In this document: positions 3,458 through 38,317 of the stretch, piece after piece
Numbering within the stretch: position 1 is the first letter of the stretch
Layout of the letters: each line of letters opens with the position of its first letter
Origin: Escherichia phage fp01
Direction: 5' to 3' (one strand)
Sequence record: NC_048731.1
Length of the DNA: 64,000 bases
Position numbers and translations under genes: made by a program
The notes under the pieces: generated by a model
Seen by the model: only the letters and a program-made list of their open reading frames with translations
Told to the model about the DNA's origin: nothing
The model's database searches: none

Positions 3458-3947
3458 TTTCAAATTGCCCGTATATGCTTTACGGGCGTTTGTATCAATT
3501 GAGCAAGAGGGTGATTATTCCGTAATTACAACAAGGTATAATAAATATGTGCTAGATAACAGGAAGTTGCCTGGCACGTTTTCTCAACGTAGGCTTATTC
3601 TATTTGAGAAACGGAAAGAATTACCCTACAAGCTCTACCCTATTAGAGGTAGAATATCAATGTTGTCTCAATTAGTTGGGTCAAAGCGTAGCCAATTTAT
3701 AGATTCTGATGGAAATCTTATTAACTGGAAGAAAACTACATTCTATGATGTTGTCACCTCTAAAGTTTTGCATTCAGCTAGAATTTATAATGGAAAATAC
3801 CAATGCTATGTAGCTAAAGTTCCATACCCATTTGTATTATCCTATGTTCCAGCTTATATAAGCTATATTCTGGTAAATAATAGCCCTGTTATTTACCAAG
3901 TCCATCAAGAGGAGCCTGAAATTCCTAGACTTAGAATAAAATTATGA
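3450..3947 (+). CDS. hypothetical protein (start uncertain; possible internal ATG near 3660)
   Basis: Open frame between polymerase and helicase genes; no recognisable motif. Confidence 0.3.
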   Translation: MLDFKLPVYALRAFVSIEQEGDYSVITTRYNKYVLDNRKLPGTFSQRRLILFEKRKELPYKLYPIRGRISMLSQLVGSKRSQFIDSDGNLINWKKTTFYDVVTSKVLHSARIYNGKYQCYVAKVPYPFVLSYVPAYISYILVNNSPVIYQVHQEEPEIPRLRIKL

Positions 3948-5296
3948 AAGTTGTTATATCTAATAAAGCCTATTTCAAGCCCGATGATGAACTTTGGGAT
4001 TATTGTAGTAAGCAAACCACTTATCACATAGAGACAATGACTAGTAAATACCCTATTATGTATAAGAATAGTGGTGTTGTTGCCAAAGAGATTAAGTGGA
4101 TTCCTATCACTCGTCTAGATTTATTAGATGCTAAAGGAGTAAAATACGAATTAGTCGATAAACGCACATTAGCTCCGGCAGATATACCAAAACCTAAGTT
4201 CAAGCTGCGTGAAGAAGATCAGCTTCCAATATACGAAGAATGCGATGATACCTGTATTATTAATGGTAAGCCTGGATTTGGTAAAACTATCCTAGCCCTT
4301 GCACTTGCGTATAAATTTGGCCAAAAAACTCTGGTAATATGTACGAATACATCCATTCGTGAGATGTGGGCAGCAGAAGTTCGTAAATGGTTTGGGTTTG
4401 AACCGGGTATCATAGGTTCTGGGAAATACAATATTGATCCACCAATTGTAGTCAGTAATATTCAAACAGTGAATAAACATGCGAATAATCTTTCTAAAGT
4501 ATTCGGTACTGTTATAGTTGATGAAGTTCACCATTGTGTGGCTACAACTTTCACTAACTTCCTAGAAATATCATGTGCTCGCTATAAGATTGGACTATCC
4601 GGTACATTAAAAAGAAAAGATGGTCTACAAGTTATGTTCAAAGATTTCTTTGGATATAAGATTTTTAGCCCACCGGTTAATAATACTGTTGCACCTACAA
4701 TCCATAGGTACTCTGTACCTGTTGAGTTATCAGGAAATCAGAATGTGCCATGGGCATTACGTGCTAATGATGTGTACAATCATCCTGAGTATCGAGAAAC
4801 TATTATAAACCTAGCACATTTATATGTGAATATGGGGCATAAAGTACTCATTGTAAGCGATAGAACAGAGTTAATCCAAACAGTACTAGAAGCTCTTGCA
4901 CAGCGTGGTGTTACAACTTATGAAATTATAGGGGCAACCCACTTAGATGACCGATTAAAAATCCAGGAAGATATAGCAAAAGGTGGACCTTGTGTACTTG
5001 CAGCAGCTCAGAGTATCTTCTCTGAAGGTATTTCCCTTAATGAGCTATCTTGTTTAATAATGGGAAGTCTTATTAATAATGAATCTCTCATTGAACAGCT
5101 TGCAGGACGTGTTCAACGTATTGTCGATGGTAAACTCGACCCTATTGTTGTAGATCTAATCATGAAAGGTGGTACTGGGCTAAGACAGGCTTCTGGACGT
5201 ATGGCAGTATATCGTAACAACGGGTGGAAAACTATTACCACGACTCCGGAGAAAGCAGTTCAATTAGCTAAAATTGCATTTGGCAACAGCTCATAA
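3944..5296 (+). CDS. SF2 DNA helicase (T5 D10-like)
   Basis: Walker A 'NGKPGFGKT', Walker B/DEAH-like 'VDEVHH', later 'SGT' and Q/R-rich helicase motifs; ATG at 3944 overlaps the upstream stop. Confidence 0.7.
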   Translation: MKVVISNKAYFKPDDELWDYCSKQTTYHIETMTSKYPIMYKNSGVVAKEIKWIPITRLDLLDAKGVKYELVDKRTLAPADIPKPKFKLREEDQLPIYEECDDTCIINGKPGFGKTILALALAYKFGQKTLVICTNTSIREMWAAEVRKWFGFEPGIIGSGKYNIDPPIVVSNIQTVNKHANNLSKVFGTVIVDEVHHCVATTFTNFLEISCARYKIGLSGTLKRKDGLQVMFKDFFGYKIFSPPVNNTVAPTIHRYSVPVELSGNQNVPWALRANDVYNHPEYRETIINLAHLYVNMGHKVLIVSDRTELIQTVLEALAQRGVTTYEIIGATHLDDRLKIQEDIAKGGPCVLAAAQSIFSEGISLNELSCLIMGSLINNESLIEQLAGRVQRIVDGKLDPIVVDLIMKGGTGLRQASGRMAVYRNNGWKTITTTPEKAVQLAKIAFGNSS

Positions 5297-5308
5297 ATGA
5301 TGTATAAT
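5280..5308 (+). promoter_or_regulatory. sigma70 promoter (T5 early type)
   Basis: 'TTGGCA' + 17 nt + 'TATAAT', followed by 'ATATACATAAATTTGAGAGAG', which resembles the downstream region of the classical T5 PN25 promoter as I recall it. Confidence 0.45.
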
Positions 5309-5379
5309 ATATACATAAATTTGAGAGAGAAAGTTTCGGATTGATAAGAAAGTCCGAAGCAGAAAAATAAAAATTTTAG

Positions 5380-5409
5380 TTGCTAAATTCTCTCGAAATC
5401 TAGTATAAT
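5380..5409 (+). promoter_or_regulatory. sigma70 promoter (T5 early type), tandem copy
   Basis: 'TTGCTA' + 18 nt + 'TATAAT' followed by 'ATATACATAAATTCGAGGAG'; near-duplicate of the promoter at 5280-5308. Confidence 0.45.
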
Positions 5410-5793
5410 ATATACATAAATTCGAGGAGAAAACAAAAATTAAATTCTTCGATTATGAAAAGCTATACTTACTAGCTAGAGGAAATTCCGACCTAATTAT
5501 TAAGCTATTCAAAAGAATGCTTACAGAGCCTGATGCTCACCAACTATTGGTCGGTTCCTCATTCATTTTGAATGAATCAACTATTGTTGATAATCCAAAT
5601 AAATTGTCTAATAGACAACTGGCAGAATATCTAGGAATTTTAAGTCTACGAAATTATGCCGAATACAAGTTTACAAACGATCCTAGTTTGGACATGCAAT
5701 ATGTTCCAGTATGGATACCACGTTTAGTAATCGACACTAACCCACTAATCGCAATTAACAAATCGAAATTAATCTTTAAAGAGGAAATAAAAT

Positions 5794-6567
5794 ATGGCTA
5801 AGTCTTGGGGCGAAACTACTGGCGGTTCTAACGATAAAATCGAATTCCTGAAGTTCAACAACGGTATCACTCGTGTTCGTATCGTTTCTGGTGTTCTTCC
5901 ACGTTATGTCTATTGGCTGACTAATAAAGAGGGTAACGTAGCTCCTTTTGAATGTCTCCGTTTTAACCGTGACAAAGAGAGCTTTGTTCGTGGTAAAGCT
6001 GATCCAGTTCATGAGATGGGCTTCTTCGAGAAAGAGCTGGATAAAGATGGTAATCGTGTTCCGCTGAAACCGAAGAAAAACTATATCGCTTTTGTTATTG
6101 ACCGTTCTGATAACAAACTGAAAGTAATGGAAGTCAAGGCTACTATTCTGAAAGGCATCCAGTCTATCATGAAGCAGCTGAGCCTGGCAACTCCGTTTGA
6201 TATTGATATTTCTATCGAGAAAAAAGGTAAAGGTTTCGATACTGAGTATGATGTACAGCAGATTGCTGCTATGCAGTTCCAGATTAAGCTGCAAGATCCT
6301 AACAGTGCGGAATCTAAGCAATATGCTGCGGATGTCGATCTGATCGGTGAAGCTATGTGTGATGAAGATGGCGACATCATTAAGTTCGAAAAAGTTCCTT
6401 CTCTGGAACAAACCTATCCGGTTCCTACCTATGAAGAGCAGAAAGAAGCAATTCAAGCCTTCATGGAGGGTCGTGAGAATAAAGATGATGATGCCAAATC
6501 TGGTAATAGCAATGCAGGCTCCCAGAAAGGTATTGACTCAGAAGCTGCAAGCGATCTGGACGACTAA
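5794..6567 (+). CDS. abundant early protein with acidic C-terminal tail, possibly ssDNA-binding protein
   Basis: Strong RBS 'AAAGAGGAAATAAAATATG'; codon usage visibly biased toward major E. coli codons; C-terminus 'DSEAASDLDD' is SSB-like; followed by a strong terminator. Function is inference. Confidence 0.55.
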   Translation: MAKSWGETTGGSNDKIEFLKFNNGITRVRIVSGVLPRYVYWLTNKEGNVAPFECLRFNRDKESFVRGKADPVHEMGFFEKELDKDGNRVPLKPKKNYIAFVIDRSDNKLKVMEVKATILKGIQSIMKQLSLATPFDIDISIEKKGKGFDTEYDVQQIAAMQFQIKLQDPNSAESKQYAADVDLIGEAMCDEDGDIIKFEKVPSLEQTYPVPTYEEQKEAIQAFMEGRENKDDDAKSGNSNAGSQKGIDSEAASDLDD

Positions 6568-6574
6568 TAAATAG

Positions 6575-6598
6575 AGGGGCTTCGGCCCCTTTCTTTTT
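6575..6598 (+). terminator. rho-independent terminator
   Basis: Hairpin 'AGGGGC-TTCG-GCCCCT' (UUCG tetraloop) followed by 'TTCTTTTT'. Confidence 0.7.
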
Positions 6599-6603
6599 AA
6601 CCA

Positions 6604-7581
6604 ATGAGAATATTATTTAGTGCTGATCATCATATCAAACTAGGACAAGATAAAGTTCCAAAGGAATGGCAGAAGCGTCGCTTCCTGATGCTAGGAGAAC
6701 GGTTAAATGATATATTCCATAATCATAACTGTGATCTTCATATTGCTGGTGGTGATATACTTGATGTTGCCGACCCGTCGTCAGAAGAAATAGAACTGCT
6801 TGAACAGTTCATGTCAAGACTTGACCATCCAGGCAAAATCTTTACTGGAAATCATGAAATGTTAACTAAAACCATTTCATGTCTATATCATTATGCAGGA
6901 GTTATTAATAAAGTAACGAGCGGGAAGTGGGAAGTAATTACCAAACCATATCGTTCCCCTGAATTTGATATTGTTCCATATGACGAAATCCATAAATCTA
7001 AGTGGAAACCATCTGAATCAAAACTATGTTTCACGCATGTTCGTGGTGAAATCCCTCCACATGTAAAACCAGAAATTGATCTAACTAAGTATAACTGTTA
7101 TGATACTGTAATTGCTGGCGATTTACATTCTTATACTAATAGCCAGACTATCGGATCTACTAGACTTCTCTACCCAGGGTCTCCATTAACTACATCGTTC
7201 CATAGAGAACGCACAAAAGGTACAAATGGTTGTTTTATCGTTGATACCGACACATTAAAAGTAGAATGGATTGAACTCGGTGATTTACCACAACTGATTC
7301 GTAAAACAATCGGAGCCGGTGAAGAGATGGAACCTAGTGATTATGATCGTGTAGTATATGAAGTTACTGGTGACGTTGTTCAATTAAAGTCAATCAAAGA
7401 CTCTGATTTATTAGATAAGAAGATTAACCATCGAGTTACTAAAGACGCTAAGTTAAATCTTGTCGATCTTGATATGTTAGGTGAACTTGAACTTTACTTC
7501 CGTGAAGTCGAGAAGCTATCTCAAGGCGACATTGATAGAATCTTGGCTAGAGCTGCGAAATATGTCAAAGATTACAATTAA
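6604..7581 (+). CDS. Mre11/SbcD-like metallophosphatase nuclease (T5 D13-like)
   Basis: Calcineurin-like phosphoesterase motifs 'ADHH', 'GGDILD', 'TGNHE'. Confidence 0.75.
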   Translation: MRILFSADHHIKLGQDKVPKEWQKRRFLMLGERLNDIFHNHNCDLHIAGGDILDVADPSSEEIELLEQFMSRLDHPGKIFTGNHEMLTKTISCLYHYAGVINKVTSGKWEVITKPYRSPEFDIVPYDEIHKSKWKPSESKLCFTHVRGEIPPHVKPEIDLTKYNCYDTVIAGDLHSYTNSQTIGSTRLLYPGSPLTTSFHRERTKGTNGCFIVDTDTLKVEWIELGDLPQLIRKTIGAGEEMEPSDYDRVVYEVTGDVVQLKSIKDSDLLDKKINHRVTKDAKLNLVDLDMLGELELYFREVEKLSQGDIDRILARAAKYVKDYN

Positions 7582-9400
7582 GACACTAAAATTTAGTAAC
7601 GTTATGTCTTACGGTAAGGACATCGTAATTCATTTCGATAAGAATCCAGTTACTCAACTAATTGGTGGCAATGGGCTAGGGAAATCCACTATTGCTACTG
7701 TTATTGAAGAATTGTTTTATAACAAGAACTCACGGGGTATTAAGAAGGACGCCCTGTTCTCTTGGTCTACTCCGAAAAAAGAGTATGATATGCACGCTTA
7801 CTTCTCGAAAGATGAAGATGAGTATGAATTGCATAAAGTAGTTAAATCAACTGCTAAAGTAACTCTTATTAAGAATGGAGAAGATATTAGTGGCCACACG
7901 GCAACTCAAACATACAAGATGATTGAAGAGATTATGGGTGGTGACTTCCAAACATTCACCAAACTAATTTATCAATCAGTGGGTTCCAATCTAGACTTTC
8001 TAAAAGCAACAGATGCAACACGTAAGGCTTTTCTTGTCAACTTGTTCAATCAAGAACAGTATAAAGAAATGTCAGAAACTATTAAGGCTGACCGTAAAGA
8101 AATAGCAAATACCTTAAATAATTTGCAGGGCCAAATGGCTGTAATTACGAAGATCCTTAATGGAAAGAATAATCTGGGAACTTTGCAGGAACCTGTAGAA
8201 GTACCGGAGTTTGATGAAGAGCCATTAGCACAAGAACTTACTGAATCGAAAATTAAGGCGGCATTAGCCAAGTCTCAAGAGGCTAATATTACTAAATTGC
8301 GTAATTTGGACAAAGCTGTACAAGTTGCCGAACAATCTTTCGAACCTTTCAAAAATTTGCCCGCGCCTACTGACCAAAACGAAGAGATCTCAAGTGTTAC
8401 GCGTGACCTAACGATTGTGACCTCACGTGCGGGAGAAGTTAAGAAACGTTATCAGAAGTTCAAGCAAGAGGCTTCAAATACTGAATGTCCTACTTGTGGT
8501 ACTCATCTGGATACAACTGCTGCTCAAAAAGCAATGGATATGGCTAGAATAGAATATGACCCTCTGTTCAAAGAGAAGCAATCTCTTGAAGCTAAGCTAG
8601 AACAGTTGAAGAAAGAACAACTTGAGTACGTTGCGTATACTAGAGCAAAGGATGCTTTGGATAAAGCAGTGGCAGCTAGAGACGAGTTCAAAAATTCAAT
8701 GAGTGACGCCTCTTTTGAAGAACTCAATGTGCAAAACCTACAGGTGCAAATCCGACAACTAGAACAGGAAATAGCTGATGGCCGTTCTAAGGTTGCAATT
8801 GCCAAAGAGCATAATGCAAATGTCGAATTAGCCAATGCAAAATATAAAGCGAAACTAGAACAGATTGAGAAAGCTGAGGCAGAAATGTCTGAGATTACTT
8901 CCAAACTGGATGAAGTATCAGAAGCTGTTTCTGATCTAGATATTCTGATTGCTGCATTGAAAAATCTGGTAGGGTATAAACTAGAACATAGCGTGAAAGT
9001 ATTTGAAGAGCTTATCAATAAATACCTTTCCATTATGACTGGCGGTAAGTTCGCACTTGGATTTGAACTTGATGAAACAAAATTACAAGTAGTAATCTTC
9101 AATGATGGAAACCGTACTAGTATGGAGAATTGCTCTACTGGTCAGCAAAGTCGAATCAACCTAGCAACTCTGTTAGCTATTCGAATGCTACTAACATCTA
9201 TTAGTAAAGTTAATATTAATCTTCTATTCCTTGATGAAGTAATTAGCTTTATTGATACGAAAGGACTTGACACCCTTGTTGAATTATTAAATGAGGAAGA
9301 AAGTCTAAATTCTATCATTGTTTCTCATGGGCATACGCATCCATTGGCCCATAAGATTACTGTCAAAAAAGATGCAGAAGGATTTTCCTACTTAGAATAA
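7562..9400 (+). CDS. Rad50/SbcC-like ATPase (T5 D12-like)
   Basis: Walker A 'GGNGLGKST', long coiled coil with zinc-hook-like 'CPTCG', ABC signature 'STGQQSRINLA', Walker B 'LLFLDEV'. Likely start is ATG at 7562 (MSKITIK), not 7481. Confidence 0.75.
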   Translation: MSKITIKTLKFSNVMSYGKDIVIHFDKNPVTQLIGGNGLGKSTIATVIEELFYNKNSRGIKKDALFSWSTPKKEYDMHAYFSKDEDEYELHKVVKSTAKVTLIKNGEDISGHTATQTYKMIEEIMGGDFQTFTKLIYQSVGSNLDFLKATDATRKAFLVNLFNQEQYKEMSETIKADRKEIANTLNNLQGQMAVITKILNGKNNLGTLQEPVEVPEFDEEPLAQELTESKIKAALAKSQEANITKLRNLDKAVQVAEQSFEPFKNLPAPTDQNEEISSVTRDLTIVTSRAGEVKKRYQKFKQEASNTECPTCGTHLDTTAAQKAMDMARIEYDPLFKEKQSLEAKLEQLKKEQLEYVAYTRAKDALDKAVAARDEFKNSMSDASFEELNVQNLQVQIRQLEQEIADGRSKVAIAKEHNANVELANAKYKAKLEQIEKAEAEMSEITSKLDEVSEAVSDLDILIAALKNLVGYKLEHSVKVFEELINKYLSIMTGGKFALGFELDETKLQVVIFNDGNRTSMENCSTGQQSRINLATLLAIRMLLTSISKVNINLLFLDEVISFIDTKGLDTLVELLNEEESLNSIIVSHGHTHPLAHKITVKKDAEGFSYLE

Positions 9401-9886: not shown

Positions 9887-10761
9887 TGAGTAAATCCTGG
9901 GGAAAATTTATTGAAGAAGAGGAAGCTGAAATGGCTTCCCGTCGTAACCTAATGATTGTCGATGGAACTAACTTAGGCTTTCGCTTCAAGCATAACAATA
10001 GTAAAAAACCATTTGCCTCAAGTTATGTTTCCACTATTCAGTCTCTTGCAAAATCTTATTCTGCTAGAACTACAATAGTTTTAGGAGATAAGGGGAAGTC
10101 TGCATTCCGCTTAGAGCATTTACCTGAGTATAAGGGTAATCGAGATGAGAAATACTCTCAGCGTACGGAAGAGGAGAAAGCGTTAGATGAGCAGTTCTTC
10201 GAGTATTTGAAAGATGCTTTCGAATTATGTGAAACTACGTTCCCAACTTTCACTATTCGTGGTGTAGAAGCAGACGACATGGCAGCTTATATTGTTAAGC
10301 TCATCGGGCATCTATATGATCATATTTGGCTAATTTCTACCGATGGTGACTGGGATACTTTATTAACTGATAAAGTATCTCGCTTCTCTTTCACAACACG
10401 TCGTGAATATCATCTTCGTGATATGTATGAGCATCATAATGTTGACGATGTAGAGCAGTTTATCTCCCTGAAAGCAATTATGGGTGATTTAGGGGATAAT
10501 ATCCGAGGTGTTGAAGGTATTGGGGCAAAGCGTGGGTATAATATTATTCGTGAATTTGGTAACGTTCTGGATATTATTGATCAGCTTCCACTGCCTGGAA
10601 AACAGAAATATATACAGAATTTAAATGCTTCGGAAGAATTGCTTTATCGAAACCTAATTCTGGTTGATTTACCTACCTACTGTGTGGATGCTATTGCTGC
10701 TGTAGGTCAAGATGTATTAGATAAATTTACAAAAGATATTTTGGAGATTGCAGAACAATGA
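9886..10761 (+). CDS. flap endonuclease / 5'-3' exonuclease (T5 D15-like, 291 aa)
   Basis: N-terminus 'MSKSWGKFIEEEEAEMASRRNLMIVDGTNLGFRF' and overall sequence match what I recall of T5 5'-exonuclease; conserved acidic clusters 'VDGTN', 'GVEADD', 'STDGDWD'. Confidence 0.85.
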   Translation: MSKSWGKFIEEEEAEMASRRNLMIVDGTNLGFRFKHNNSKKPFASSYVSTIQSLAKSYSARTTIVLGDKGKSAFRLEHLPEYKGNRDEKYSQRTEEEKALDEQFFEYLKDAFELCETTFPTFTIRGVEADDMAAYIVKLIGHLYDHIWLISTDGDWDTLLTDKVSRFSFTTRREYHLRDMYEHHNVDDVEQFISLKAIMGDLGDNIRGVEGIGAKRGYNIIREFGNVLDIIDQLPLPGKQKYIQNLNASEELLYRNLILVDLPTYCVDAIAAVGQDVLDKFTKDILEIAEQ

Positions 10762-11204
10762 TTAAAATTAAATTAACTCATCCAGATTGTATGCCTAAGA
10801 TTGGTTCCGAAGATGCTGCAGGTATGGATCTGCGAGCATTCTTTGGTACTAACCCTGCTGCAGATTTACGTGCTATTGCACCAGGCAAATCCCTAATGAT
10901 TGACACCGGTGTCGCGGTGGAAATTCCGCGAGGTTGGTTCGGTTTGGTAGTTCCTCGTAGCTCTTTAGGTAAGCGTCATTTGATGATTGCAAATACCGCG
11001 GGAGTGATTGACTCAGACTATCGTGGAACTATTAAGATGAACCTGTTCAACTACGGTTCTGAAATTCAAACTCTGGAAAATTTTGAAAGACTTTGTCAGC
11101 TGGTAGTAGTACCACACTACTCAACTCATAATTTTGAAATTGTTGACGAACTAGGGGAGACTGATCGTGGAGAGGGTGGCTTTGGAAGTTCGGGAAGTAA
11201 ATAA
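10758..11204 (+). CDS. dut: dUTP pyrophosphatase
   Basis: dUTPase motifs 'AGMDLRA', 'VPRSSLG', 'GVIDSDYRGT', 'RGEGGFGSSG'. Confidence 0.85.
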   Translation: MIKIKLTHPDCMPKIGSEDAAGMDLRAFFGTNPAADLRAIAPGKSLMIDTGVAVEIPRGWFGLVVPRSSLGKRHLMIANTAGVIDSDYRGTIKMNLFNYGSEIQTLENFERLCQLVVVPHYSTHNFEIVDELGETDRGEGGFGSSGSK

Positions 11205-11228
11205 TCTACATATCAAATAAATAATAAA

Positions 11229-11260
11229 CCCCAGAGGGATATCCCTCTGGGGTTTTCTTT
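11229..11260. terminator. bidirectional rho-independent terminator between converging modules
   Basis: Hairpin 'CCCCAGAGGG-ATAT-CCCTCTGGGG' flanked by A-run upstream and 'TTTTCTTTTATT' downstream. Confidence 0.65.
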
Positions 11261-13389
11261 TATTGAGGTACTATCTGTACCTTTAATTGCTTGAGTTCTT
11301 CTTCTAAGTCTTCAATCCTTTTAATAAGATCTTGAACAACATGCATAGTATCAAGAAGCATTGGAGTTGTATCAAGTTCTTTTTGTTCCTGTTCTGCCCC
11401 ATTGTTATCATAGAATTTTCTAGTTTTAACATAAAGCGGTTCTATAACTTCTGTTTCCTGAGCGATAACACCTCGTCTTATACGTTGAAGATTATCGTTA
11501 TTATATATGAATGTCACAAAGTTTAGATTTTTGATGTTTTCTAAAGCTTTTTCAACAGTTGTATTTTCTATAGAATGTTTAAGGCGCCTATCTGAAGTTG
11601 CATTCTTTTGTAAAGTGTATGTTTCTTCTGATCCTGGTTGCCATTTGTGGAAAAAAATATCGGAATTTAATGGTTGAATACCGACACGAACTCCATAAGC
11701 GTTATTAGCATCGCCAGCAATATGCCATACGGATTGTGCAAAAGATGTTCCGTTGTGATGAATCATCCCCCAGTGACACGAAGTCTTATAACCACCTTGA
11801 CTAGATTGGGCACCACTAAGAAGACTATTAAAAGCGTAATTTGCTCCAATAGCCTGGTCTTCCGCGCTAAATGTACCTTTAGTAAAACCTGTTTCACTCC
11901 AAGCCATCATAGTCCCATATCTTGCTCTATATCGATCGCTACTCAGCGTACCTGTGTCATCAAAGGCAAGGTCTTTTGTCACCCCTTTTGTCTTGTTGTA
12001 TACAGACAGAATCGCATAATAAAGGCCATCCATGTATGCATCGCATCGCAATCCTGCATCCGCTTCAACAACGGTGCCGATTTTGTATTGGGCCTTTACC
12101 TGTCCTGACAATGCCTTTACGCCAGAGCCTGGGCGGACAGCATCAGCATTCATTACACTCCAAGACGTATTCGCGGCAACAAAGCCACCAGAGGCACGAA
12201 TCACCCAAACGCCGACAAAGTTGCGCGGAACGATTTCTGCTGCTGAACGACCATAAACAGGACTGCAGCGAGAAGCGTCAAAGTTGGTTTGTATGTACCT
12301 TGAACCAGAGCCAACCGCAGCAGGAGCGTCCCCCGAAGTTATCGACTGAAAAGCACCGTTAGTTGCCACTTGGCTTGCTAAAGAAGCCAATGTCACCATT
12401 GTGTGCGGCGCTGCGTAAGTTATATTTGGAGCGCCTGATTCAGACACAACCCCGTTGGACGATGAATTCCCGCCGTCACCCCTGCCAAATAAGGCCTGTA
12501 TGGAACCAGTTTGAACACCGTTCCTGTCAGGCACTCGAAACGTTGTTGTTCCGTTACCCAAAGAATATTTACCACGCTTTGATGCGTCAGCAAGCCATTC
12601 CGCATCTGAAATCGGCGTAAGCATTTGCGCATATGCCCAAAGCTCAGGCCAGTCAGCCCTGTTAAGAAGCTGCCCATCAGAAACCACCTCATACGGTTGA
12701 ATATACGCACGGCTATCTCGAAGATGGAAATCACCGACACCGTAGTTCATCACGCCATTCATTGTGGGTCCTACTGTGCCAGTATTAATTTTGTTCTCCA
12801 CCCAACGCTTAGTTACAGCATCATAATCATTAACGGGGTCTCCCGCAAGGGGGGTAGATCCAATAGGACGAACATTTAACCACGCAGCTGCGCGATCTGC
12901 TAAATCTGATAAATTATTTTCAGTCAATAGGCTTTCGTCTTTTGTTGGCACATTATAACTTTGTCTAAAAGCTTCTTTTGATACTACTCCAGTACCCCCT
13001 TGTTCTATAGAAAGTGCAGTGGTTAAACCTGTTAAAGATTTAATAGTTGAGTTGGCACCATCCATGTCTATACTAGCAAATCTTGACCATGCAGTCCATG
13101 AACTGTAAAAAGATCTACTATATATCTCATTACTATTATAAGGTAAGTAAATTTGAGTACAAGAAGTTGCTAAATTGCTTGCATTATTTTTTAAAACTAG
13201 TAATGTACCTGCAGCCGCAACAGGATAGTTAAGAGAAGTAGGAGAGTTAGCATTTTCAGATTGCCAATACTTTCCATACACACTCCCATCAAGTGTATTT
13301 AAATTTGTTCCTGTAGTAATTAAACCATATACAGGTAAAGCGGCTACATCAGTAGCCTTTAAGTTAATTTTATCAATTCTAAGAGCCAT
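11260..13389 (-). CDS. L-shaped tail fibre distal protein with C-terminal intramolecular chaperone (auto-cleaving) domain
   Basis: C-terminal ~110 aa ('KHSIENTTVEKALENIKNLNFVTF...EDLEEELKQLKVQ') resembles the S74-type chaperone domain found at the end of T5 pb1 and other phage fibres; body is Gly/Ser/Thr-rich. Confidence 0.65.
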   Translation of the reverse strand: MALRIDKINLKATDVAALPVYGLITTGTNLNTLDGSVYGKYWQSENANSPTSLNYPVAAAGTLLVLKNNASNLATSCTQIYLPYNSNEIYSRSFYSSWTAWSRFASIDMDGANSTIKSLTGLTTALSIEQGGTGVVSKEAFRQSYNVPTKDESLLTENNLSDLADRAAAWLNVRPIGSTPLAGDPVNDYDAVTKRWVENKINTGTVGPTMNGVMNYGVGDFHLRDSRAYIQPYEVVSDGQLLNRADWPELWAYAQMLTPISDAEWLADASKRGKYSLGNGTTTFRVPDRNGVQTGSIQALFGRGDGGNSSSNGVVSESGAPNITYAAPHTMVTLASLASQVATNGAFQSITSGDAPAAVGSGSRYIQTNFDASRCSPVYGRSAAEIVPRNFVGVWVIRASGGFVAANTSWSVMNADAVRPGSGVKALSGQVKAQYKIGTVVEADAGLRCDAYMDGLYYAILSVYNKTKGVTKDLAFDDTGTLSSDRYRARYGTMMAWSETGFTKGTFSAEDQAIGANYAFNSLLSGAQSSQGGYKTSCHWGMIHHNGTSFAQSVWHIAGDANNAYGVRVGIQPLNSDIFFHKWQPGSEETYTLQKNATSDRRLKHSIENTTVEKALENIKNLNFVTFIYNNDNLQRIRRGVIAQETEVIEPLYVKTRKFYDNNGAEQEQKELDTTPMLLDTMHVVQDLIKRIEDLEEELKQLKVQIVPQ

Positions 13390-13398
13390 TTTAACTCC

Positions 13399-13704
13399 TT
13401 ATGCCCACATGCGAACAGGTGTTTCTGGGTTTACTATAAATTTATCTAGTATAGAGAGATCAAAATCATCAATATTCATAATACGCAGATTAACGTGATA
13501 TCCTTCTTGCACTACATACTCAATATCTTCTATATTTTGATACTCTGTTAAGGGTTTTGCAGGCTGACTGATAATACCGATAAAATCAATACTGACATTT
13601 TCACAATATAAACTACCTGTTTCTTCATCTAAACTAAAGCCAAATTTTATCAAATTAATTTTCATTTCATCAGCATTAGTAAATTTTAGATATAAATCTT
13701 TCAT
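13399..13704 (-). CDS. hypothetical protein within tail-fibre locus
   Basis: Compact ORF between the two fibre genes; no motif. Confidence 0.4.
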   Translation of the reverse strand: MKDLYLKFTNADEMKINLIKFGFSLDEETGSLYCENVSIDFIGIISQPAKPLTEYQNIEDIEYVVQEGYHVNLRIMNIDDFDLSILDKFIVNPETPVRMWA

Positions 13705-13750: not shown

Positions 13751-15654
13751 TTACCGTAAGCCATTAATTTGATCATTATTTAAAGCCCTATACCATACTC
13801 GGAAATTCTTAATATGATATACAAATTTAGAAGGGGTAGGAGATGGTGATGCACCTAACCTAGACGGAATACCTGTCAAACTCACGGGAGTACTAGTAGA
13901 TTTAGCAGTTTTACCATTAAAGAAATTACTAATCTCATTCCCTGTTATTTTTTGAGCATAGGTCATAGGAGGTAGACTTTCTATATCTGGAATAGCTAAG
14001 GTTGGCCCTGTACTAGATCTATATGTTCTTATAGTGGCATTATCAGCGCTATCACAGCGGCAGATAATGTCATACTTAGAACCTCTTACTTGCATAACTT
14101 CTACATAACTAGTATAAGGTCGTACTTTACAATTAAATTCAAAAGATACTGTGCGCTCAAAGTAGTCCGCCAGGGTTCTATAGCCGGCATTATCTGGTAT
14201 ACACCACCATTCATCTGCTGTTCTAGTAGTGGTGGTATCAGTGCTATTACGGATGTAAGAAGTTGGAGCTATGCCTTCCTCAACCTGTATACCCCAAATG
14301 TAGAAACCAGAAACACCATCCCCCTGGTAGACAGTAGTATTGGTATTTTTAGCCATCTGGAGTCTAAATATAGTGCTTCGACTTTCAGTGGCTGCAAAAG
14401 AAACCCAAATTCTATATATACCTCCAGTTAATCTCTCATACCCCCCTCTAATATTACTAGCAGAACCACTTGTAGCAACAGTTTCATTTTTAATATCAAA
14501 AAACATACCAACAGTTGTACCGGAAGCTACACGTAGATATACTAAACGGTTAGCGGTATCATCTTTAACATAAGCAGAATAGCAATAAAAAGTATCAGCA
14601 GTCAAAGATATCCATTTATCGTTGCAGTAATGCTCGCCGTCATTGGTATTCTCGGTAAACTTAGTCATCAACATTTCGCCAGTCGGGCACGCCGAAGCAT
14701 TAGGAGTTGTAATAACTAGACTACCTCCAGTAATTGCTTCTGAATTAGTATATAAATTAGTGCACTGAGACTCCATTAATAAACCTTGCTTTTCAAATCT
14801 AGGTTCATTAATATCTGCAAAACACATTTTACCACTTTTATCTATATAACTGGCGGTAGTTGAGCGAGTAAAATTTGCAGATTTTGTTGGCAATTCCAGA
14901 GTTACATCATTAATTGTTGCTAAATCGTAGGGGGCCATACCAGATAATAATCTCATATCATCAGTTAAAGGTACCCAAACATCCGGATAAGGGACAGGTT
15001 CATACATAATAATACTAGCAGCAGAAGCAGCGGCGGCAGCTTCAGAAGCTTTAGCATTAATTTCAGAAGCTTTAGCGTTAGTCTCTGAAGCTTTAGCATT
15101 AGTCTCAGAAGNNNNNNNNNNNNNNNNNNNNNNNNNNNNNNNNNNNNNNNNNTTTTACTTGCTAATGCATTAGTTTCGCTAGTAGCAGCATTAGTTTCCG
15201 AGGTTTTAGCTTTGGTTTCACTAGATTTTGCATTAGTTTCTGATGCTTTTGCATTAGTCTCGGATGTTTTAGCCTTAGTTTCACTAGCTTTCGCATTAGT
15301 CTCAGATACTTTAGCTGCTGCGGCTGATGCTGCAGATCTATCCGCTGATGCAGCAGATTGAGTAGCAGATGTAGCGGACTGAGTGGCAGAGGCTTCAGAA
15401 GCTCCAGCAGAAATAGCAGCTTCCTGTTCAGAATCCTTAGCATTAAGTTCTGAAGTCTTAGCAGCTATCTCAGAAGCTTTTGCAGCTGCAGCAGATTTAG
15501 CCGTAGCCTCAATAGAGGATACTAATTCACTTGCAGTAATAGAGCTAATAGAATTACCTAGAGTTACAGTATATCTAGGAAATTTACTAGCAGTAGCTTT
15601 AGTATCATCAATATTTAATATCTGTTGTACAATAATCTTAGTAGTTACTGCCAT
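13751..15654 (-). CDS. L-shaped tail fibre proximal protein (interrupted by assembly gap; true length unknown)
   Basis: Reading upstream of the Met at 15007 in the same frame stays open through the 21-nt repeats to the gap; beyond the gap the N-terminal part starts at 15654. Track ORFs 13751..15007 and 14965..15654 are therefore one gene. Confidence 0.55.
15040..15310 (-). repeat. tandem 21-nt repeats encoding 7-aa units (SETNAKA-like)
   Basis: At least 10 copies of 'GCATTAGT(C/T)TC(A/G)GA(A/T)GCTTTA'-like units on the plus strand, encoding 'ASETNAKASETKAKTSETNA...'. Confidence 0.8.
15112..15152. other. assembly gap (41 N)
   Basis: Run of n inside the tandem-repeat region; length is not a multiple of 3, so the downstream frame in the track is artefactual. 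Confidence 0.95.
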
Positions 15655-16076
15655 TATTTAGTTACCCCATCACTGATAAATACTTTACCCTCCATTATGC
15701 GAAAGGAGCTAATTGCAGATCCTACAACATCTCTAGTCATGATTATATCATAGTATCCTGCTAATCGCTGACGGGGGTTATACTTATCTCTATCTTTAGA
15801 TGCTTTAGCTCCTAGATTTTCCACGGATTCTACTGGCAAACTTATAGCCACAGCCCCCTGGGCAGCATCAATAATATTAGTAGTAAAGGATGCTAGGGTT
15901 TCTGCGTTCTCTTCTAGACTACTTTTTATAACACCTCTTAGAGAATACCCCGTTAAATTAACAGGGGTATTTGTAGGTGGGTAAGTACTATCATCAACAT
16001 CTAAGAACTGCATCATTAAACCATATGGTACTTTCTCATCTATTACTAAGTCTATAACTCTATTTTCAGTACTCAT
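15654..16076 (-). CDS. tail collar protein (T5 p132-like)
   Basis: 140 aa; sits between baseplate genes and the fibre gene as in T5; assignment by order and size. Confidence 0.45.
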
Positions 16077-16079
16077 TAT

Positions 16080-18152
16080 TTACCTTATATGGATGTACCC
16101 GTTTTGCAGGTCTATCTTCATTCTGTAATAGGCTTCCGGGTTGGAGGATAGTGCTGCTGCACGATCATATATAATATTTACACCGATTTGGGATAGGAAA
16201 GCATTACCAGCAACTATTTTACTAGCAGTTACAGTACCATTAACTATCATATCACCGTGTAAGACCATAGCAGGGCTAACCCATGCCGAGCCATTCCATT
16301 GTCTAGTAAATGCTGTTTGCGGAGCATTACTATTAAACTCAGTTAATACATCGTATTTAACAGGCGGGGAACCAAAATTACTTTGGAAGAAGGAGTTAGC
16401 ACGACTATCGTCCCATCCTCCTAATCCGGCCACTCCAAGAGAATACATGCCCGGACCTCTCTGGCCATCCGCACCAATAGTACCTTCAGTACCACTCCAC
16501 TGAACAACATCCGCCCAACTAGTACCTTCCAATAATTTATTTGTAACAGGGTCTAGAGTACCAGTTGTAGCATAAATATTCTGAGTCATATCAGTACGGT
16601 TAGGTGGTGTTTTAGACCATCCAGGAGGCGGATAATCTTGCTCCAATGGTTTTGCTGGCAAACTTTTACCAAGTTTATAAACAAATACTGTTTGTTTACC
16701 CTGCATCCCAGTACCAATATCTACGTCTCCATTAGGAGTACCAATAACAACTCCACTAGAAATACGAAGAGTATCGCCATCATAGCGTATCCACTGAGTA
16801 GCATTACCTATATCTAACTTTGGCTTAGCAGAAGTGTTATCCATTCCCATCCAGATACCAGATTTTGTATCTCCCCAAGTTTTACCTTGAGTATAGATTG
16901 CCGGGTTATCTTGGCCAGTTAGATTAGTCATTACAAAGTTAGCAGCATTGATAGTTTTAGTTATAATACTACCATCAACGTTAACTATCTTTTTAATAGG
17001 GTCGAAAGATATTGGTGCTTTTCCTTCTGCATCTAGGAGGCCTATATTAATAGCACCAGTAGCAGCATCGATTAAAAATGTTTGCTTCCACGTGGAGCCA
17101 TCTTTGATCTTACCTTTAATATACGCATAGTTTACTTCTATACCAGTTTCATTAACAAAGCTATTATCAAGATGGGTGTCCTCATTTAGTATAAAAGTCT
17201 GTACTGCAGAATCTGTAACATCTTGAGCATTTGGCCCCCACGCTATAGAGGAGACCTTAAATTTATGCTCAATTTTCCACGGAAACGATATAATAGTTGC
17301 CGCTTGTGCAGCACCTACGTTAATTTTTTGGGCCTTAGTCCATCCAGTTCTTGCAAATTCTGTGGAATCTATATAAGAAACGACAAATTCCCGAACATTG
17401 GCTCCAGATCCCCTATTCCACTCCCACTGTACACGAAGGTCATATCTCTCTTTACCATCTGCAATTCTTGCAGCCTTGAAGGTAATATTGCTAGGAGCAG
17501 TGGGCGGTACAAAGTTATACTCTACAGTAAGAACTTTAGAAAATTCAAAGTATCCAGAGGAGTCTACCGTTACACCATCAGGCATAGTAACTTGCCCTGA
17601 TATGCGTACTTTATAATCACCAATAGGGACACCACCAAATCTAATAGTGGGGGATAACGGACCTACATAATATTTTACCCACGTACTATTTGAAGGTTGA
17701 GTACTTTTTAACTCAATAGTACAGTAGCTTGCTTCACCAGTTGTTTCTACGACAACTATCGGTGCACCTACCCCAACATCCACAGGTTCTGATTCAGATC
17801 TTGCTGCAACAATTGTTGGCTTCTCTTTTGTCCTAAAGTTAGTCTCATTAGAGAGATTGATACCAATCTTAGCCTCTAACAGTTCAGAATCAATAATAGA
17901 GTCGTAAAAAGCCCCTTGAATCTCATAAGAGGTTGAAGGGGTCAGATTATTAATCATTACGAAGAAAGTATCTATACCAGTATAATCACGTCTATCTATA
18001 CTTTCTCCTGTCTTTAACCAAAAAGATCTGCCAATAACGTCATAGTCAGTATATATAGAATGCTGGACATATGCCATTGTATATCCAGTCATTATACTAT
18101 TTAAGACCATTTTGGCTGGTGCATTATTCGAAATCATTAAATGGATGCCCAC
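16080..18152 (-). CDS. baseplate tube / central fibre protein (T5 pb4-like)
   Basis: 690 aa, Gly/Thr/Ser-rich beta-rich composition, downstream of hub gene. Confidence 0.45.
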   Translation of the reverse strand: MGIHLMISNNAPAKMVLNSIMTGYTMAYVQHSIYTDYDVIGRSFWLKTGESIDRRDYTGIDTFFVMINNLTPSTSYEIQGAFYDSIIDSELLEAKIGINLSNETNFRTKEKPTIVAARSESEPVDVGVGAPIVVVETTGEASYCTIELKSTQPSNSTWVKYYVGPLSPTIRFGGVPIGDYKVRISGQVTMPDGVTVDSSGYFEFSKVLTVEYNFVPPTAPSNITFKAARIADGKERYDLRVQWEWNRGSGANVREFVVSYIDSTEFARTGWTKAQKINVGAAQAATIISFPWKIEHKFKVSSIAWGPNAQDVTDSAVQTFILNEDTHLDNSFVNETGIEVNYAYIKGKIKDGSTWKQTFLIDAATGAINIGLLDAEGKAPISFDPIKKIVNVDGSIITKTINAANFVMTNLTGQDNPAIYTQGKTWGDTKSGIWMGMDNTSAKPKLDIGNATQWIRYDGDTLRISSGVVIGTPNGDVDIGTGMQGKQTVFVYKLGKSLPAKPLEQDYPPPGWSKTPPNRTDMTQNIYATTGTLDPVTNKLLEGTSWADVVQWSGTEGTIGADGQRGPGMYSLGVAGLGGWDDSRANSFFQSNFGSPPVKYDVLTEFNSNAPQTAFTRQWNGSAWVSPAMVLHGDMIVNGTVTASKIVAGNAFLSQIGVNIIYDRAAALSSNPEAYYRMKIDLQNGYIHIR

Positions 18153-36559: not shown

Positions 36560-38317
36560 TTAGGTAAGGCGTTGAACTGTTACTCTTAATCTAGGTAGGA
36601 AAACCGCACTACCTAAACTTACGTGCATAACTACCCCTAACTCTACATTTCCATTTCCTAGATTTTTAACTGTATATGTGAAACTATTTCTACTTAGTGC
36701 ATTATTAGGTGTGTATCTAAATGCAGATGTAGTATGAAATGGTACTAAGTAACCTACAGGTAATGTTAAAATCTGGTGGAATATTGCATCTCCATTACTA
36801 TAGCTATAAGCCCTTCTTCCCTGCACCTGAAATACACCGTTATTCCATGTATTAGCCGGAACACCAGCACAATTAAGATTACCAGATATAACTTCAGTAG
36901 TAAGAATAACGGTAGCATTACCTCCTGGAATTCCTAGTCCAATAGTAGATAGAGCCACGTATCTGTCTCCAGTTCCGGGGTAGTAAGGGGTAATATCATC
37001 CCCCATGTAAGAACTACCAACATTTCCACTAAAAAGTCTCAGAGGAACTGAAGAAGGCCCCCAAACAACACCATGTTCATTACCAATAGTATTATTACTT
37101 GAGTTTACGTACCATTGCTTACCCGCTCCGAATTTGTAAATACTAATTTGAGACTTAGCCCCTCCATAGTCTACGGGAGACCATAAACTTCCATTACTAG
37201 AGCCTACAAGTTCGCACCTTGCAGTGGTATCTCCAAAGGCTCCAGTGTACGCTGCGTTATTTCCGACGTATTCCATATCTGGCCTATAGCCTAAGTTACC
37301 AAAAGCATTCTGGTTAATAAACTTATATCCAGTATTCGGTAAACTAACCCCTTTTATAGTAAAATTAGAGGGGGAGATAAGAATATCTGAACCAGTAAAA
37401 GGATTACCAGAGATACCCATATTACCATTAGAATACCTCAGATTAAGTACATACCAAATAACCTTAGTAGGAGTTATGTTATACCAATCCTGTAATATTG
37501 TAGCATTACCAGATTGATTAGCTAAATTAGTTGTAGAACCCCTACAAACAAATCTGTTACCTCCATCGTGGTACATAGTATTTACGCTACCAGGAAGACC
37601 TTGTCTTACCCCGCCATACCCACGTATGTTAGAGCTACAAACATAGAACCAATCGTGTCCTCTGTGTGCTGATCCTAAAGGAGACATCCATCCCGGATCC
37701 CAGTAATATGGATTATTACCATCTATAGGTACTGTACTACTATTAGTAGGAAAACCCAGCTGTGCAAAAGCTTCTGCAACAGTAATACCTACTGGAGCTC
37801 CTGCACCTGGCCTAACTATACCATGATAAGTACTATGTAGGGTGGTCCCACCAGTACCATTTCTAGAGATAGATTCTTCATGCCCTATAGATGGGTTATA
37901 GTTATATGTGCCAGATGCCAGGCTATTACCAAATGCAAATCCACTAGTTTGGGAAACGCTAGCAAAAGATCTAAAAGGATCTGCTTGAGTGGCAACTATA
38001 GTTTGACCTACTTTACTCTGAGTACCATTAAGAAAAGCCCTATGAGTACCATTAATCTCAATAGCAGTTAGTATAACTCTACCTGGGTCATTGGATTTAA
38101 TATTTATTATGTCAGAGGGCATCTGACATACAAAAAACCCATTTCCAGCATTTCCTAACCCGGCCTCATAAGTACCATCAACTAGGACAAATGGCATATC
38201 ACTATGAAAAATACTATTGGCATTTGGACTATAGTGACGATTAATGTCACCCCCAGATTCAGTATTTAAAGATAGTACGGTCTTACCATCGCTATATTTT
38301 CCAGCGAAAAAACCCAT
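36560..38317 (-). CDS. receptor-binding tail protein (T5 pb5/Oad-like)
   Basis: 585 aa Gly/Asn/Ser-rich beta-type protein at the end of the late module, divergently paired with an Llp-like lipoprotein gene as in T5; 'AGGAG' RBS. Confidence 0.55.

Follow-up and report, generated by a model that had tools for sequence, protein, structure and literature searches.

A three-gene lateral tail fibre locus in Escherichia phage fp01, with a small uncharacterised protein encoded between the two fibre proteins

How are the parts of a tail fibre held together when they are made as separate proteins? The question is raised by Escherichia phage fp01 (NC_048731.1), of which we analysed a stretch of 64,000 nucleotides (the window). 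The initial annotation had placed at 11260-13704 an L-shaped tail fibre encoded as a proximal and a distal protein with a 101-aa open reading frame (ORF) between them. The small ORF and the distal gene do lie in that span and have, in the ORF list, exactly the coordinates that had been claimed, but the proximal gene lies outside it. The main features of the locus are given below.

15654..16076, minus strand: gene for the LtfC collar protein, 140 aa (Pfam PF23926 LtfC, E 3.5e-13)
13751..15654, minus strand: LtfA-like proximal fibre gene, one ORF broken by an N placeholder
15112..15152, no strand: 41-N placeholder in the coiled-coil repeat region of the proximal gene
13399..13704, minus strand: gene for a 101-aa protein of an uncharacterised family (MxDxYLKF...GYHVNLR...PxTPxRVWA)
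11260..13389, minus strand: distal fibre gene, 709 aa, with Peptidase_S74 at the C-terminus
11226..11255, no strand: bidirectional intrinsic terminator with a 13-bp stem, 8 G-C pairs and T-runs on both strands

The three fibre-locus genes are flanked on the minus strand by the LtfC collar gene and a dUTPase gene, with the pb4 and LtfC genes upstream and the dUTPase gene downstream (ORF list, Pfam). The placement of ltfC matches that in DT57C, AKFV33 and Bas32, and its product would anchor the lateral fibres to the tail tip. The terminator separates the distal fibre gene from the dUTPase gene that converges on it, and in AKFV33 a terminator is annotated at the equivalent site. [quoted passage not shown] This layout has already been published for AKFV33 (2012), mar004NP2 (2019) and Bas32 (2021 and 2025), and the locus is ordinary except for the unstudied small protein.

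The proximal gene appears in the ORF list as a 418-aa ORF (13751..15007) and a 229-aa ORF (14965..15654), which are one gene split artificially by the run of Ns. Its pieces measure 502 nt, 41 N and 1361 nt, a sum that is not divisible by three, which marks the N run as a placeholder. The size first proposed for the proximal part, ~635+ aa, agrees with the 167 + ~14 + 453 residues found here. Tandem repeats of 21 nt flank the N run. In IME178, to which the proximal gene has ~95% nucleotide identity, the orthologue is one intact ORF of 729 aa, and ~560 nt of 21/63/105/147-nt repeats occupy the position of the gap. The first 167 aa nearly match the IME178 orthologue and give PHROG tail-fibre matches that include a 1396-position pb1-type profile; PHROG 1419 and 5939 are matched by the proximal fibre. 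Residues 1-212 of the IME178 orthologue are 52% identical to DT57C LtfA, in the part that binds LtfC, and the structure of the DT57C LtfA-LtfC complex has been solved (PMC10713586). By homology, the N-terminus of the proximal protein would insert into the LtfC collar as it does in DT57C, and a trimeric heptad-repeat coiled coil would form the shaft of the fibre.

A gene interrupted in this way could also be truly disrupted, as a pseudogene or as two polypeptides, leaving a fibre that is non-functional or differently organised. At the proximal position the annotation of HMD-P3 has a pair of overlapping CDS (222 and 481 aa), and in culture the lateral fibres of T5-like phages are readily lost (PMC4728585). 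Against this, on either side of the gap an open frame carries on the same heptad repeat, the IME178 orthologue is intact, and the gap falls within tandem repeats of a type that is typically collapsed in assembly, which makes a disrupted gene quite improbable. It had also been suggested that closing the gap might fuse the fibre genes into a single pb1-like ORF. Gap closure cannot do so, because the N run is internal to the proximal gene and there is complete sequence across both gene junctions; the proximal gene ends at a sequenced stop codon (13753-13751) and the distal protein has a new start at 13389. The single fused ORF is rejected, and the proximal and distal parts are separate genes, as originally described.

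Beyond its N-terminal anchor and heptad-repeat coiled coil, the proximal protein has a C-terminal lectin-like module and carries no S74 domain.

13754..15007, minus strand: C-terminal module of the proximal protein, ~418 aa (entry segment, lectin-like body, last strand)

The module opens with an entry segment (PYPDVWVPLTDDMRLL...EPRFEKQGLL) that is conserved, continues in a lectin-like body that varies and ends in a last strand (HIKNFRVWYRALNNDQINGLR) that is again conserved. Across 76 non-redundant loci, conservation is 0.7-0.85 in the entry segment, 0.22-0.48 in the body and 0.83 at the end. The entry segment is present in 215 phage records; it is 44-51% identical to its counterparts in JLBYU40, mar004NP2, JenP2 and KurtStettler, with matches in the proximal genes of Bas32-type loci. 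The proximal fibre of the window thus ends in the conserved lectin-like module that marks the AKFV33/Bas32 type. Residues 43-265 of the 418-aa ORF match the head-spike fibre Rcc01080 of RcGTA, the gene transfer agent of Rhodobacter (6tb9, E 9.8e-19); Rcc01080 is a monomer that binds the polysaccharide capsule (PMC7296036), and the C-terminal 62 aa have a sub-threshold match to Laminin_G_3 (Pfam). In Bas32, Gp22 has been described with a protruding galectin-like domain (PMC11990801). Each proximal chain would therefore end, by this homology, in a lectin-like lobe related to the RcGTA head-spike fibre, and the lobe is likely to be an extra glycan-binding site. Conservation of the last 20 aa may reflect nothing more than their place as the core strand of a LamG fold.

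The distal protein can be divided as follows, with the names of the receptor-binding domains (RBD) taken from PMC11990801.

13330..13389, minus strand: aa 1-20, putative docking peptide (MALRIDKINLKATD...)
12883..13329, minus strand: aa 21-169, knob-like domain and linker
11890..12882, minus strand: aa 170-500, RBD1 (like T4 Gp12) and adjoining region
11596..11889, minus strand: aa 501-598, putative RBD2 (T5-like tip), by homology to RBD2 of Bas32 Gp24
11263..11595, minus strand: aa 599-709, Peptidase_S74 intramolecular chaperone, with predicted autocleavage before Ser599

Bas32 Gp24, which has been published as a "T-shaped" fibre bearing two receptor-binding domains (PMC11990801), shares 67% identity with the distal protein over 560 aa, and both carry an S74 domain, as expected of the AKFV33/Bas32 type. 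Residues 35-107 resemble knob domains of many tail fibres, including those of Wifcevirus and of T4-like gp36/37 type; aa 21-110 are 36% identical to Gp110 of phage Bas98, and the knob region (aa 21-169) has no counterpart in Bas32 Gp24. Identity to Bas98 Gp110 rises to 92% over aa 170-410 and 87% over aa 411-500, compared with 80% and 40% to Bas32 Gp24. The region coding for aa 170-500 has ~83% nucleotide identity to Bas98, Bas100 and Bas101, and its product is strongly similar to residues 528-876 of DT57C LtfA (8hqz_d). Residues 501-598 are 49-54% identical to Bas98, Bas32 and HMD-P3.

The chaperone domain was said to belong to the distal protein alone, and the Pfam search bears this out: Peptidase_S74 (PF13884) is found at aa 599-649 of the 709-aa protein only, with 46.8 bits against a cut-off of 22 (E 3.6e-12). 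Its proposed self-cleavage is consistent with the residues T598-S599-D-R-R-L-K604, a catalytic serine preceded by threonine and followed five residues downstream by lysine. The equivalent in T5 pb1 is T1263-S1264...K1269 (PMC4690869). The distal protein would be a trimer in its own right, T-shaped in type and with two receptor-binding domains, and the S74 domain would drive folding of the trimer and then cleave itself off before Ser599, judging from the Thr-Ser...Lys arrangement.

The primary receptor is likely to be an O16-type O-antigen, because O16-dependent Wifcevirus phages have an almost identical RBD1. This amounts to a host-range prediction for the phage. The earlier suggestion of a modular, multi-protein fibre with a role in O-antigen recognition is likewise supported by the homology of the distal protein to DT57C LtfB, Bas32 Gp24 and the O16-dependent Bas98 Gp110. 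Together, the proximal lobe and the two distal receptor-binding domains probably give the fibre up to three glycan-binding sites.

Between the two fibre genes, the 101-aa ORF is a real gene. It carries its own Shine-Dalgarno sequence, and its product is 98-99% identical to annotated genes of IME178 and HMD-P3. A simple homologue search returned only five close matches; an exhaustive profile search of 1.84 billion proteins returned 173 cluster representatives, all of them stand-alone proteins, with none longer than 176 aa among the 150 listed. Profile E-values for the homologues of AKFV33, Bas32, phage 21 and tunus range from 1e-8 to 1e-20, and a profile search of bacterial genome contigs with a narrower alignment found four enterobacterial prophage loci. 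The family occurs in lambdoid, Mu-like, T1-like, rV5-like and Queuovirinae phages. A structural model from a 132-sequence alignment is confident and ferredoxin-like (pLDDT 93.8); a poor model from a 5-sequence alignment (pLDDT 61.7) was set aside. No relative of the small protein was found in Pfam or the PDB, and comparison of the fold of the model gave no informative match.

The small gene directly follows a fibre gene with the lectin-like module in all loci that were examined, which come from at least eight phage groups, and the window has the same arrangement, with the small gene directly downstream of the proximal gene as in AKFV33 and Bas32. From this co-occurrence we infer that the small protein is an obligate partner of the lectin-like module. 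It also occurs with no distal fibre gene following, in phage 21, in Mu-like prophages, in rV5-like phages and in the terminal unit of locus L076. In most loci the upstream stop overlaps the start of the small ORF (translational coupling), and the distal start lies 10 nt past the stop of the small ORF, a spacing that is fixed.

The small protein varies together with the C-terminus of the proximal protein and the N-terminus of the distal one, in cognate sets. In one set a proximal end in ...GLR goes with a small protein of 100-101 aa and a distal start of MAxRxD; in the other, ...KExV goes with 92 aa and MVTKTxIPTDITKLK. Mean pairwise identity in the 76 non-redundant loci is 0.73-0.88 for the small protein and 0.70 for the first 10 aa of the distal protein, compared with 0.2-0.5 for the adjacent bodies. 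In 67 of these 76 loci the product of the downstream gene begins with the motif MAxR[IK]D[ST]IxL, while the remainder of that protein varies. The putative docking peptide of the window is identical throughout to those of IME178 and HMD-P3 and is unrelated to the N-termini of DT57C LtfB and of the Bas32 distal protein. This suggests that the conserved peptide at its N-terminus (MAxRxDxIxL) would fasten the distal protein to the proximal fibre. The small protein would most likely stay in the fibre, in the joint that receives the distal peptide, which is the least certain step of the mechanism.

A different role for the small protein is a serious possibility, although we would put it below an even chance. 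It could be an assembly chaperone of the Tfa/gp38-like kind, acting on the lectin-like module and absent from the virion, with the distal protein docking directly on the proximal one. The small protein is always paired with the upstream module, even where there is no distal fibre, and such loci fit a folding factor or a cap for the proximal module as well as they fit a joint; the coupling of the small gene to the upstream gene points the same way, as does the lack in the proximal protein of the S74 chaperone carried by other T5-type fibres. The published model of the Bas32 complex joins Gp22 to Gp24 and assigns no role to Gp23, and so needs no third protein (PMC11990801). The virion proteomes of AKFV33 and mar004NP2, very shallow datasets of 4 and 8 proteins, include the proximal fibre and neither the small nor the distal protein. 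Several observations argue against a chaperone. The small protein is uniformly conserved and the body of its supposed client is hypervariable, whereas fibre-tip chaperones usually co-vary with their clients. LamG and jelly-roll domains normally fold unaided. The small protein has no similarity in sequence or fold to the known fibre chaperones Tfa, Mu U, gp38 and gp57A.

A bolder reading, which we think less likely than not, is that the small protein is an unrecognised and widespread joint subunit that forms, with the lectin-like end of the proximal protein, a standard socket for N-terminal plugs of ~10 aa. If so, the socket could accept any protein that bears the plug MAxRxDxIxL or MVTKTxIPTDITKLK, and very different phages could swap their receptor-binding tips or even chain them, as in locus L076. 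A connector of this kind would be a portable plug-and-socket, useful for engineering phage host range; if the small protein is only a chaperone, it would represent a new chaperone family for lectin-tipped fibres. T5-like phages attach the second fibre protein to the first by at least two unrelated means, and the one that differs from DT57C always involves a small, conserved and unstudied protein.

The closest known systems are IME178, HMD-P3, AKFV33 (ORF137/136/135), mar004NP2 and Bas32 IrisVonRoten (Gp22/23/24). All five have the same three genes at the same site between ltfC and dut, namely a lectin-ended proximal gene with no S74, a member of the small family and a distal gene with S74. IME178 and HMD-P3 are 91-95% identical to the window in DNA over most of the locus; their distal proteins diverge from that of the window past ~aa 256, with a different RBD1, middle region and RBD2. 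In AKFV33, Bas32 and mar004NP2 the ends are different: the proximal protein ends in ...KExV, the small protein has 88-92 aa and is 31-35% identical to that of the window, and the distal protein begins MVTKTxIPTDITKLK. This peptide is not found in the window, which has ...GLR, 101 aa and MALRIDKINL, followed by a knob region of ~135 aa that those three phages do not have. The MALRIDKINL class is common to the window, IME178, HMD-P3, AZ23 and many prophages.

Over aa 21-703 (knob, RBD1, RBD2 and chaperone) the distal protein is 67% identical to Gp110 of Bas98 HermannAdler, a T-shaped fibre of Wifcevirus. This is its closest full-length relative, and belongs to a group described as attached to the baseplate by an N-terminal anchor; in ManiWeber Gp114 the corresponding N-terminal part is described in this way (PMC11990801). 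By analogy, the distal protein could be an independent second fibre on the tail tip. We regard this as improbable. Bas98 Gp110 is a myovirus protein with its own N-terminal part of ~100 aa, which is missing from the window protein, the alignment beginning at Bas98 residue 104; in its place is the 20-aa docking-type peptide, conserved only in genes that follow the pair of module and small protein. In addition, the DT57C tail core showed no density for a second fibre (PMC10713586).

DT57C and DT571/2 (Golomidova, 2016; Ayala, 2023) also have a lateral fibre of two proteins at the same locus position, with the LtfA N-terminus and the LtfC collar conserved. In the window an LtfC gene lies immediately upstream and the proximal N-terminus is LtfA-like. 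In DT57C both LtfA and LtfB recognise the O-antigen (Golomidova, 2016; Ayala, 2023). The alignment with LtfA and LtfB proposed in the initial annotation shows the distal protein to be homologous both to LtfB, with 43% identity, and to the part of LtfA that binds the receptor, and the proximal anchor, in its IME178 orthologue, to match the LtfA N-terminus. A branched fibre of the DT57C type, with the distal protein docked mid-shaft on the proximal one and the small ORF irrelevant, could be drawn from these likenesses, yet it seems very improbable. LtfB docks by an N-terminus of ~45 aa, like that of phiEco32 gp15, on an internal gp14-like region of LtfA. The first 110 aa of the distal protein do not align with LtfB, and the proximal protein shares with LtfA nothing beyond aa 1-212, lacking the internal region; on these comparisons docking of the DT57C type is rejected. 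DT57C also has no small ORF, and has S74 on both its proteins, whereas here S74 is on the distal protein only and the proximal one ends in a LamG-like strand. The joint of the window would thus be of another type, and from sequence the fibre may be either branched or end-to-end.

The single 1396-aa L-shaped fibre of T5, pb1, resembles the locus in its N-terminal anchor region and in its C-terminal S74 domain with Thr-Ser...Lys. In pb1 one polypeptide bears both ends, whereas here they are on two proteins, with sequenced stops and a third gene between them. Rcc01080 of RcGTA shares homology with the proximal lectin-like module; it is a monomer held on a pentameric capsid base by a 9-residue N-terminal peptide, whereas the module here is the C-terminal end of a tail fibre that is proposed to be trimeric.

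The window is a segment of a T5-like (Tequintavirus) genome, in which the proximal and distal parts of a tail fibre are encoded by separate genes with a small ORF between them. This arrangement, put forward in the initial annotation, is real and was correctly read. The features of the locus are as follows.

18152..16080, minus strand, pb4 straight fibre
16076..15654, minus strand, LtfC collar
15654..13751, minus strand, proximal fibre gene
13704..13399, minus strand, 101-aa ORF (small protein)
13389..11260, minus strand, 709-aa distal fibre gene
11226-11255, perfect 13-bp bidirectional terminator between the distal fibre and dUTPase genes
10758..11204, plus strand, convergent dUTPase gene

No gap interrupts the proximal stop codon, the small ORF (which has its own ribosome-binding site) or the point where the distal gene begins, and the Shine-Dalgarno sequence of the distal gene overlaps the small-ORF stop. 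Gap closure therefore cannot fuse the genes into one ORF, the outcome the initial annotation had set against its own reading. Elsewhere, an ORF at 36560-38317 (minus strand) has the same length as the AKFV33 receptor-binding protein pb5 (ORF158, 585 aa), and a tRNA search found no tRNA genes in the window.

The only run of Ns in the window (41 N, 15112-15152) lies within repeats of the proximal gene, and is the sole reason that the ORF list cuts this gene into 229-aa and 418-aa pieces; a SETNAKA-type heptad repeat is read on either side. As 502 nt, 41 N and 1361 nt together give a gene length that is not divisible by three, the run is a placeholder rather than a true length. It is flanked by 21-nt tandem repeats, and arrays of these 7-aa units (15042-15390) encode a coiled-coil shaft, the repeat number and hence length of which differ between relatives. 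The orthologue in IME178 is a single intact ORF of 729 aa with ~560 nt of 21-nt-type repeats, and the protein reaches 784 aa in AKFV33 and 796 aa in Bas32. In HMD-P3 (locus L001, 3045-5140) the annotation gives it as a pair of overlapping CDS (222 and 481 aa), which probably reflects a frameshift, or a faulty assembly, within these repeats.

T5 itself builds its fibre from one 1396-aa chain, pb1 (PMC4690869); that the fibre here is modular and made of several proteins is supported by homology. Only the 709-aa protein gave a Peptidase_S74 hit (46.8 bits, cut-off 22; aa 599-649), and in it T598-S599-D-R-R-L-K604 reproduces the Thr1263-Ser1264...Lys1269 arrangement that performs autoproteolysis in pb1 (PMC4690869), in agreement with the self-cleaving chaperone proposed for the distal protein only. 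The C-terminal end of the proximal protein gave a sub-threshold Laminin_G_3 match, and this lectin-like module shares homology (E 9.8e-19) with Rcc01080, the head-spike fibre of RcGTA, which is monomeric and binds capsule polysaccharide (PMC7296036).

The locus type is already known, with many GenBank entries. DNA and annotation searches found the three-gene layout in IME178, HMD-P3, AKFV33, FFH_1, mar004NP2, Bas32 IrisVonRoten and many others, IME178 and HMD-P3 sharing 91-95% nucleotide identity with the window across most of the locus. In 2012 AKFV33 was reported to lack pb1 and to have two-protein fibres (ORF137 and ORF135), with ORF137 confirmed in virions and the small protein ORF136 left undiscussed (PMC3326045). 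Two additional genes upstream of ltfB were noted in mar004NP2 (PMC6563131), and lateral fibres of one, two or more proteins occur across the Markadamsvirinae (PMC8594841). More recently the Bas32 distal protein Gp24, 67% identical to that of fp01 over 560 residues, was modelled as "T-shaped", with a Gp12-like first receptor-binding domain (RBD1), a T5-like second (RBD2) and an intramolecular chaperone, attached to a proximal fibre, Gp22, bearing a protruding galectin-like domain (PMC11990801). That paper names the proximal fibre Gp23 in section 20 and Gp22 in the legend of Fig 12; GenBank has the 796-aa fibre as bas32_0022 and the 92-aa small protein, annotated 'tail fiber protein', as bas32_0023.

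The distal protein is a mosaic. Residues 1-169 (N-terminal plug peptide, knob and linker) are 92-100% identical to IME178 and HMD-P3, and RBD1 (170-410) shows 92% identity to Gp110 of Bas98 HermannAdler, a Wifcevirus myophage, and 75-76% to IME178 and HMD-P3. Over residues 411-500 identity is 87% to Bas98 Gp110 but falls to 42% with HMD-P3 and 10% with IME178. RBD2 shows about 50% identity to Bas98, Bas32 and HMD-P3, and the chaperone domain 60-72% to these three and IME178. At the nucleotide level, 11888-12882 matches Bas98, Bas100 and Bas101 (locus L090, 2167-3161) at about 83% over ~1 kb, with 87-92% amino acid identity; such similarity to a Wifcevirus T-shaped fibre indicates a recent exchange of a receptor-binding domain across morphotypes, between a siphovirus and a myovirus. 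O16-type O-antigen is strictly required by Bas98-101, and of the Markadamsvirinae in the BASEL collection Bas32 alone infects K-12 with restored O16 (PMC11990801; PMC8594841). On this basis, O16-type O-antigen is predicted as a primary receptor of fp01.

Co-occurrence shows the small protein to be an obligate partner of the lectin-like module in which the proximal fibre ends. Its surroundings are highly regular: it lies directly downstream of a fibre gene ending ...RN[FL]RIW...L...Q... in 80 loci from IMG/VR, in several phages from GenBank and in four enterobacterial prophages, its start overlapping the upstream stop codon in most loci sampled. GenBank carriers include Tequintavirus, Aeromonas phage AhSzq-1, the Drexlerviridae phage tunus, the Queuovirinae phages JenP2 and KurtStettler, Vequintavirus naswa and lambdoid phage 21. 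Most commonly, a variable protein begins 10 nt past the small-ORF stop, and its first ten residues fit a conserved motif.

Three features were counted in favour of a place in the joint between the fibre parts, where the small protein would be retained in the virion as a structural component, a role that we rate as possible but short of probable. The first is uniform conservation beside hypervariable domains: the small protein keeps a mean pairwise identity of 0.73-0.88 along its entire length over 76 non-redundant loci, compared with 0.7-0.85 in the entry segment of the proximal module, 0.22-0.48 in its ~300-aa body, 0.83 in its last 20 residues, 0.70 in residues 1-10 of the distal protein and about 0.4 in the remainder. 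The second is the fixed gene spacing. The third is co-variation with the plug peptide, since proximal end, small-protein length and distal N-terminus form two cognate sets: ...GLR, 100-101 aa and MAxR[IK]D[ST]IxL, to which the window belongs, and ...KExV, 92 aa and MVTKTxIPTDITKLK (Bas32, JenP2, KurtStettler), with AKFV33 as a variant of the second (...REKV, 88 aa, MTTYTNIPQDITKLK).

A pure chaperone, acting as a transient folding factor, is a possibility that we rate about as highly. This role, or that of a cap, would fit a proximal protein in which the domain search found no S74, and a published Bas32 complex model that does not need the small protein. It would also fit the persistence of the small protein in loci lacking a downstream distal fibre, for example those of phage 21, Mu-like prophages and rV5-like phages. 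Six Mu-like prophage contigs from IMG/VR (L018, L022, L066, L073, L083 and L084) carry the module/small-protein pair between DNA-circulation and baseplate genes (e.g. a ~520-aa module-bearing protein and a 94-aa small protein at 4421-6285 of L022), and no plug-bearing distal gene comes after it; apparently this is an accessory fibre with a lectin tip, set within a myovirus tail cluster. In Vequintavirus naswa (L098, 321-5092) a 1479-aa rV5-type tail fibre likewise terminates in a LamG-type strand; after it comes a divergent family member of 110 aa without the RVWA C-terminus, and the pairing therefore reaches multi-fibre rV5-like phages. Locus L076 (IMGVR_UViG_3300011762_000002, 3815-7903) has two units in succession: a 728-aa fibre ending ...GLR with a 94-aa small protein, then a 441-aa protein whose plug-type MAIRKDSI start runs straight into the module, ending ...IKGL, with a second small protein. 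This looks like a chained fibre. What remains of interest at the locus is this conserved small protein and its plug-and-socket setting, a regularity that is widespread and unstudied.

The junction differs from that of DT57C, where LtfA and LtfB both terminate in S74, the small ORF is absent, and LtfB is thought to dock via its N-terminus like phiEco32 gp15 (PMC4728585); in the window, S74 is confined to the distal protein. The proximal protein, compared through the IME178 orthologue, resembles DT57C LtfA only over its ~210 N-terminal residues, which comprise the anchor and coiled coil; the distal protein can be aligned with LtfB only from residue 111 on (43% identity), their N-termini being unrelated. 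Because the two junctions differ in these ways, T5-like phages have at least two non-homologous fibre joints.
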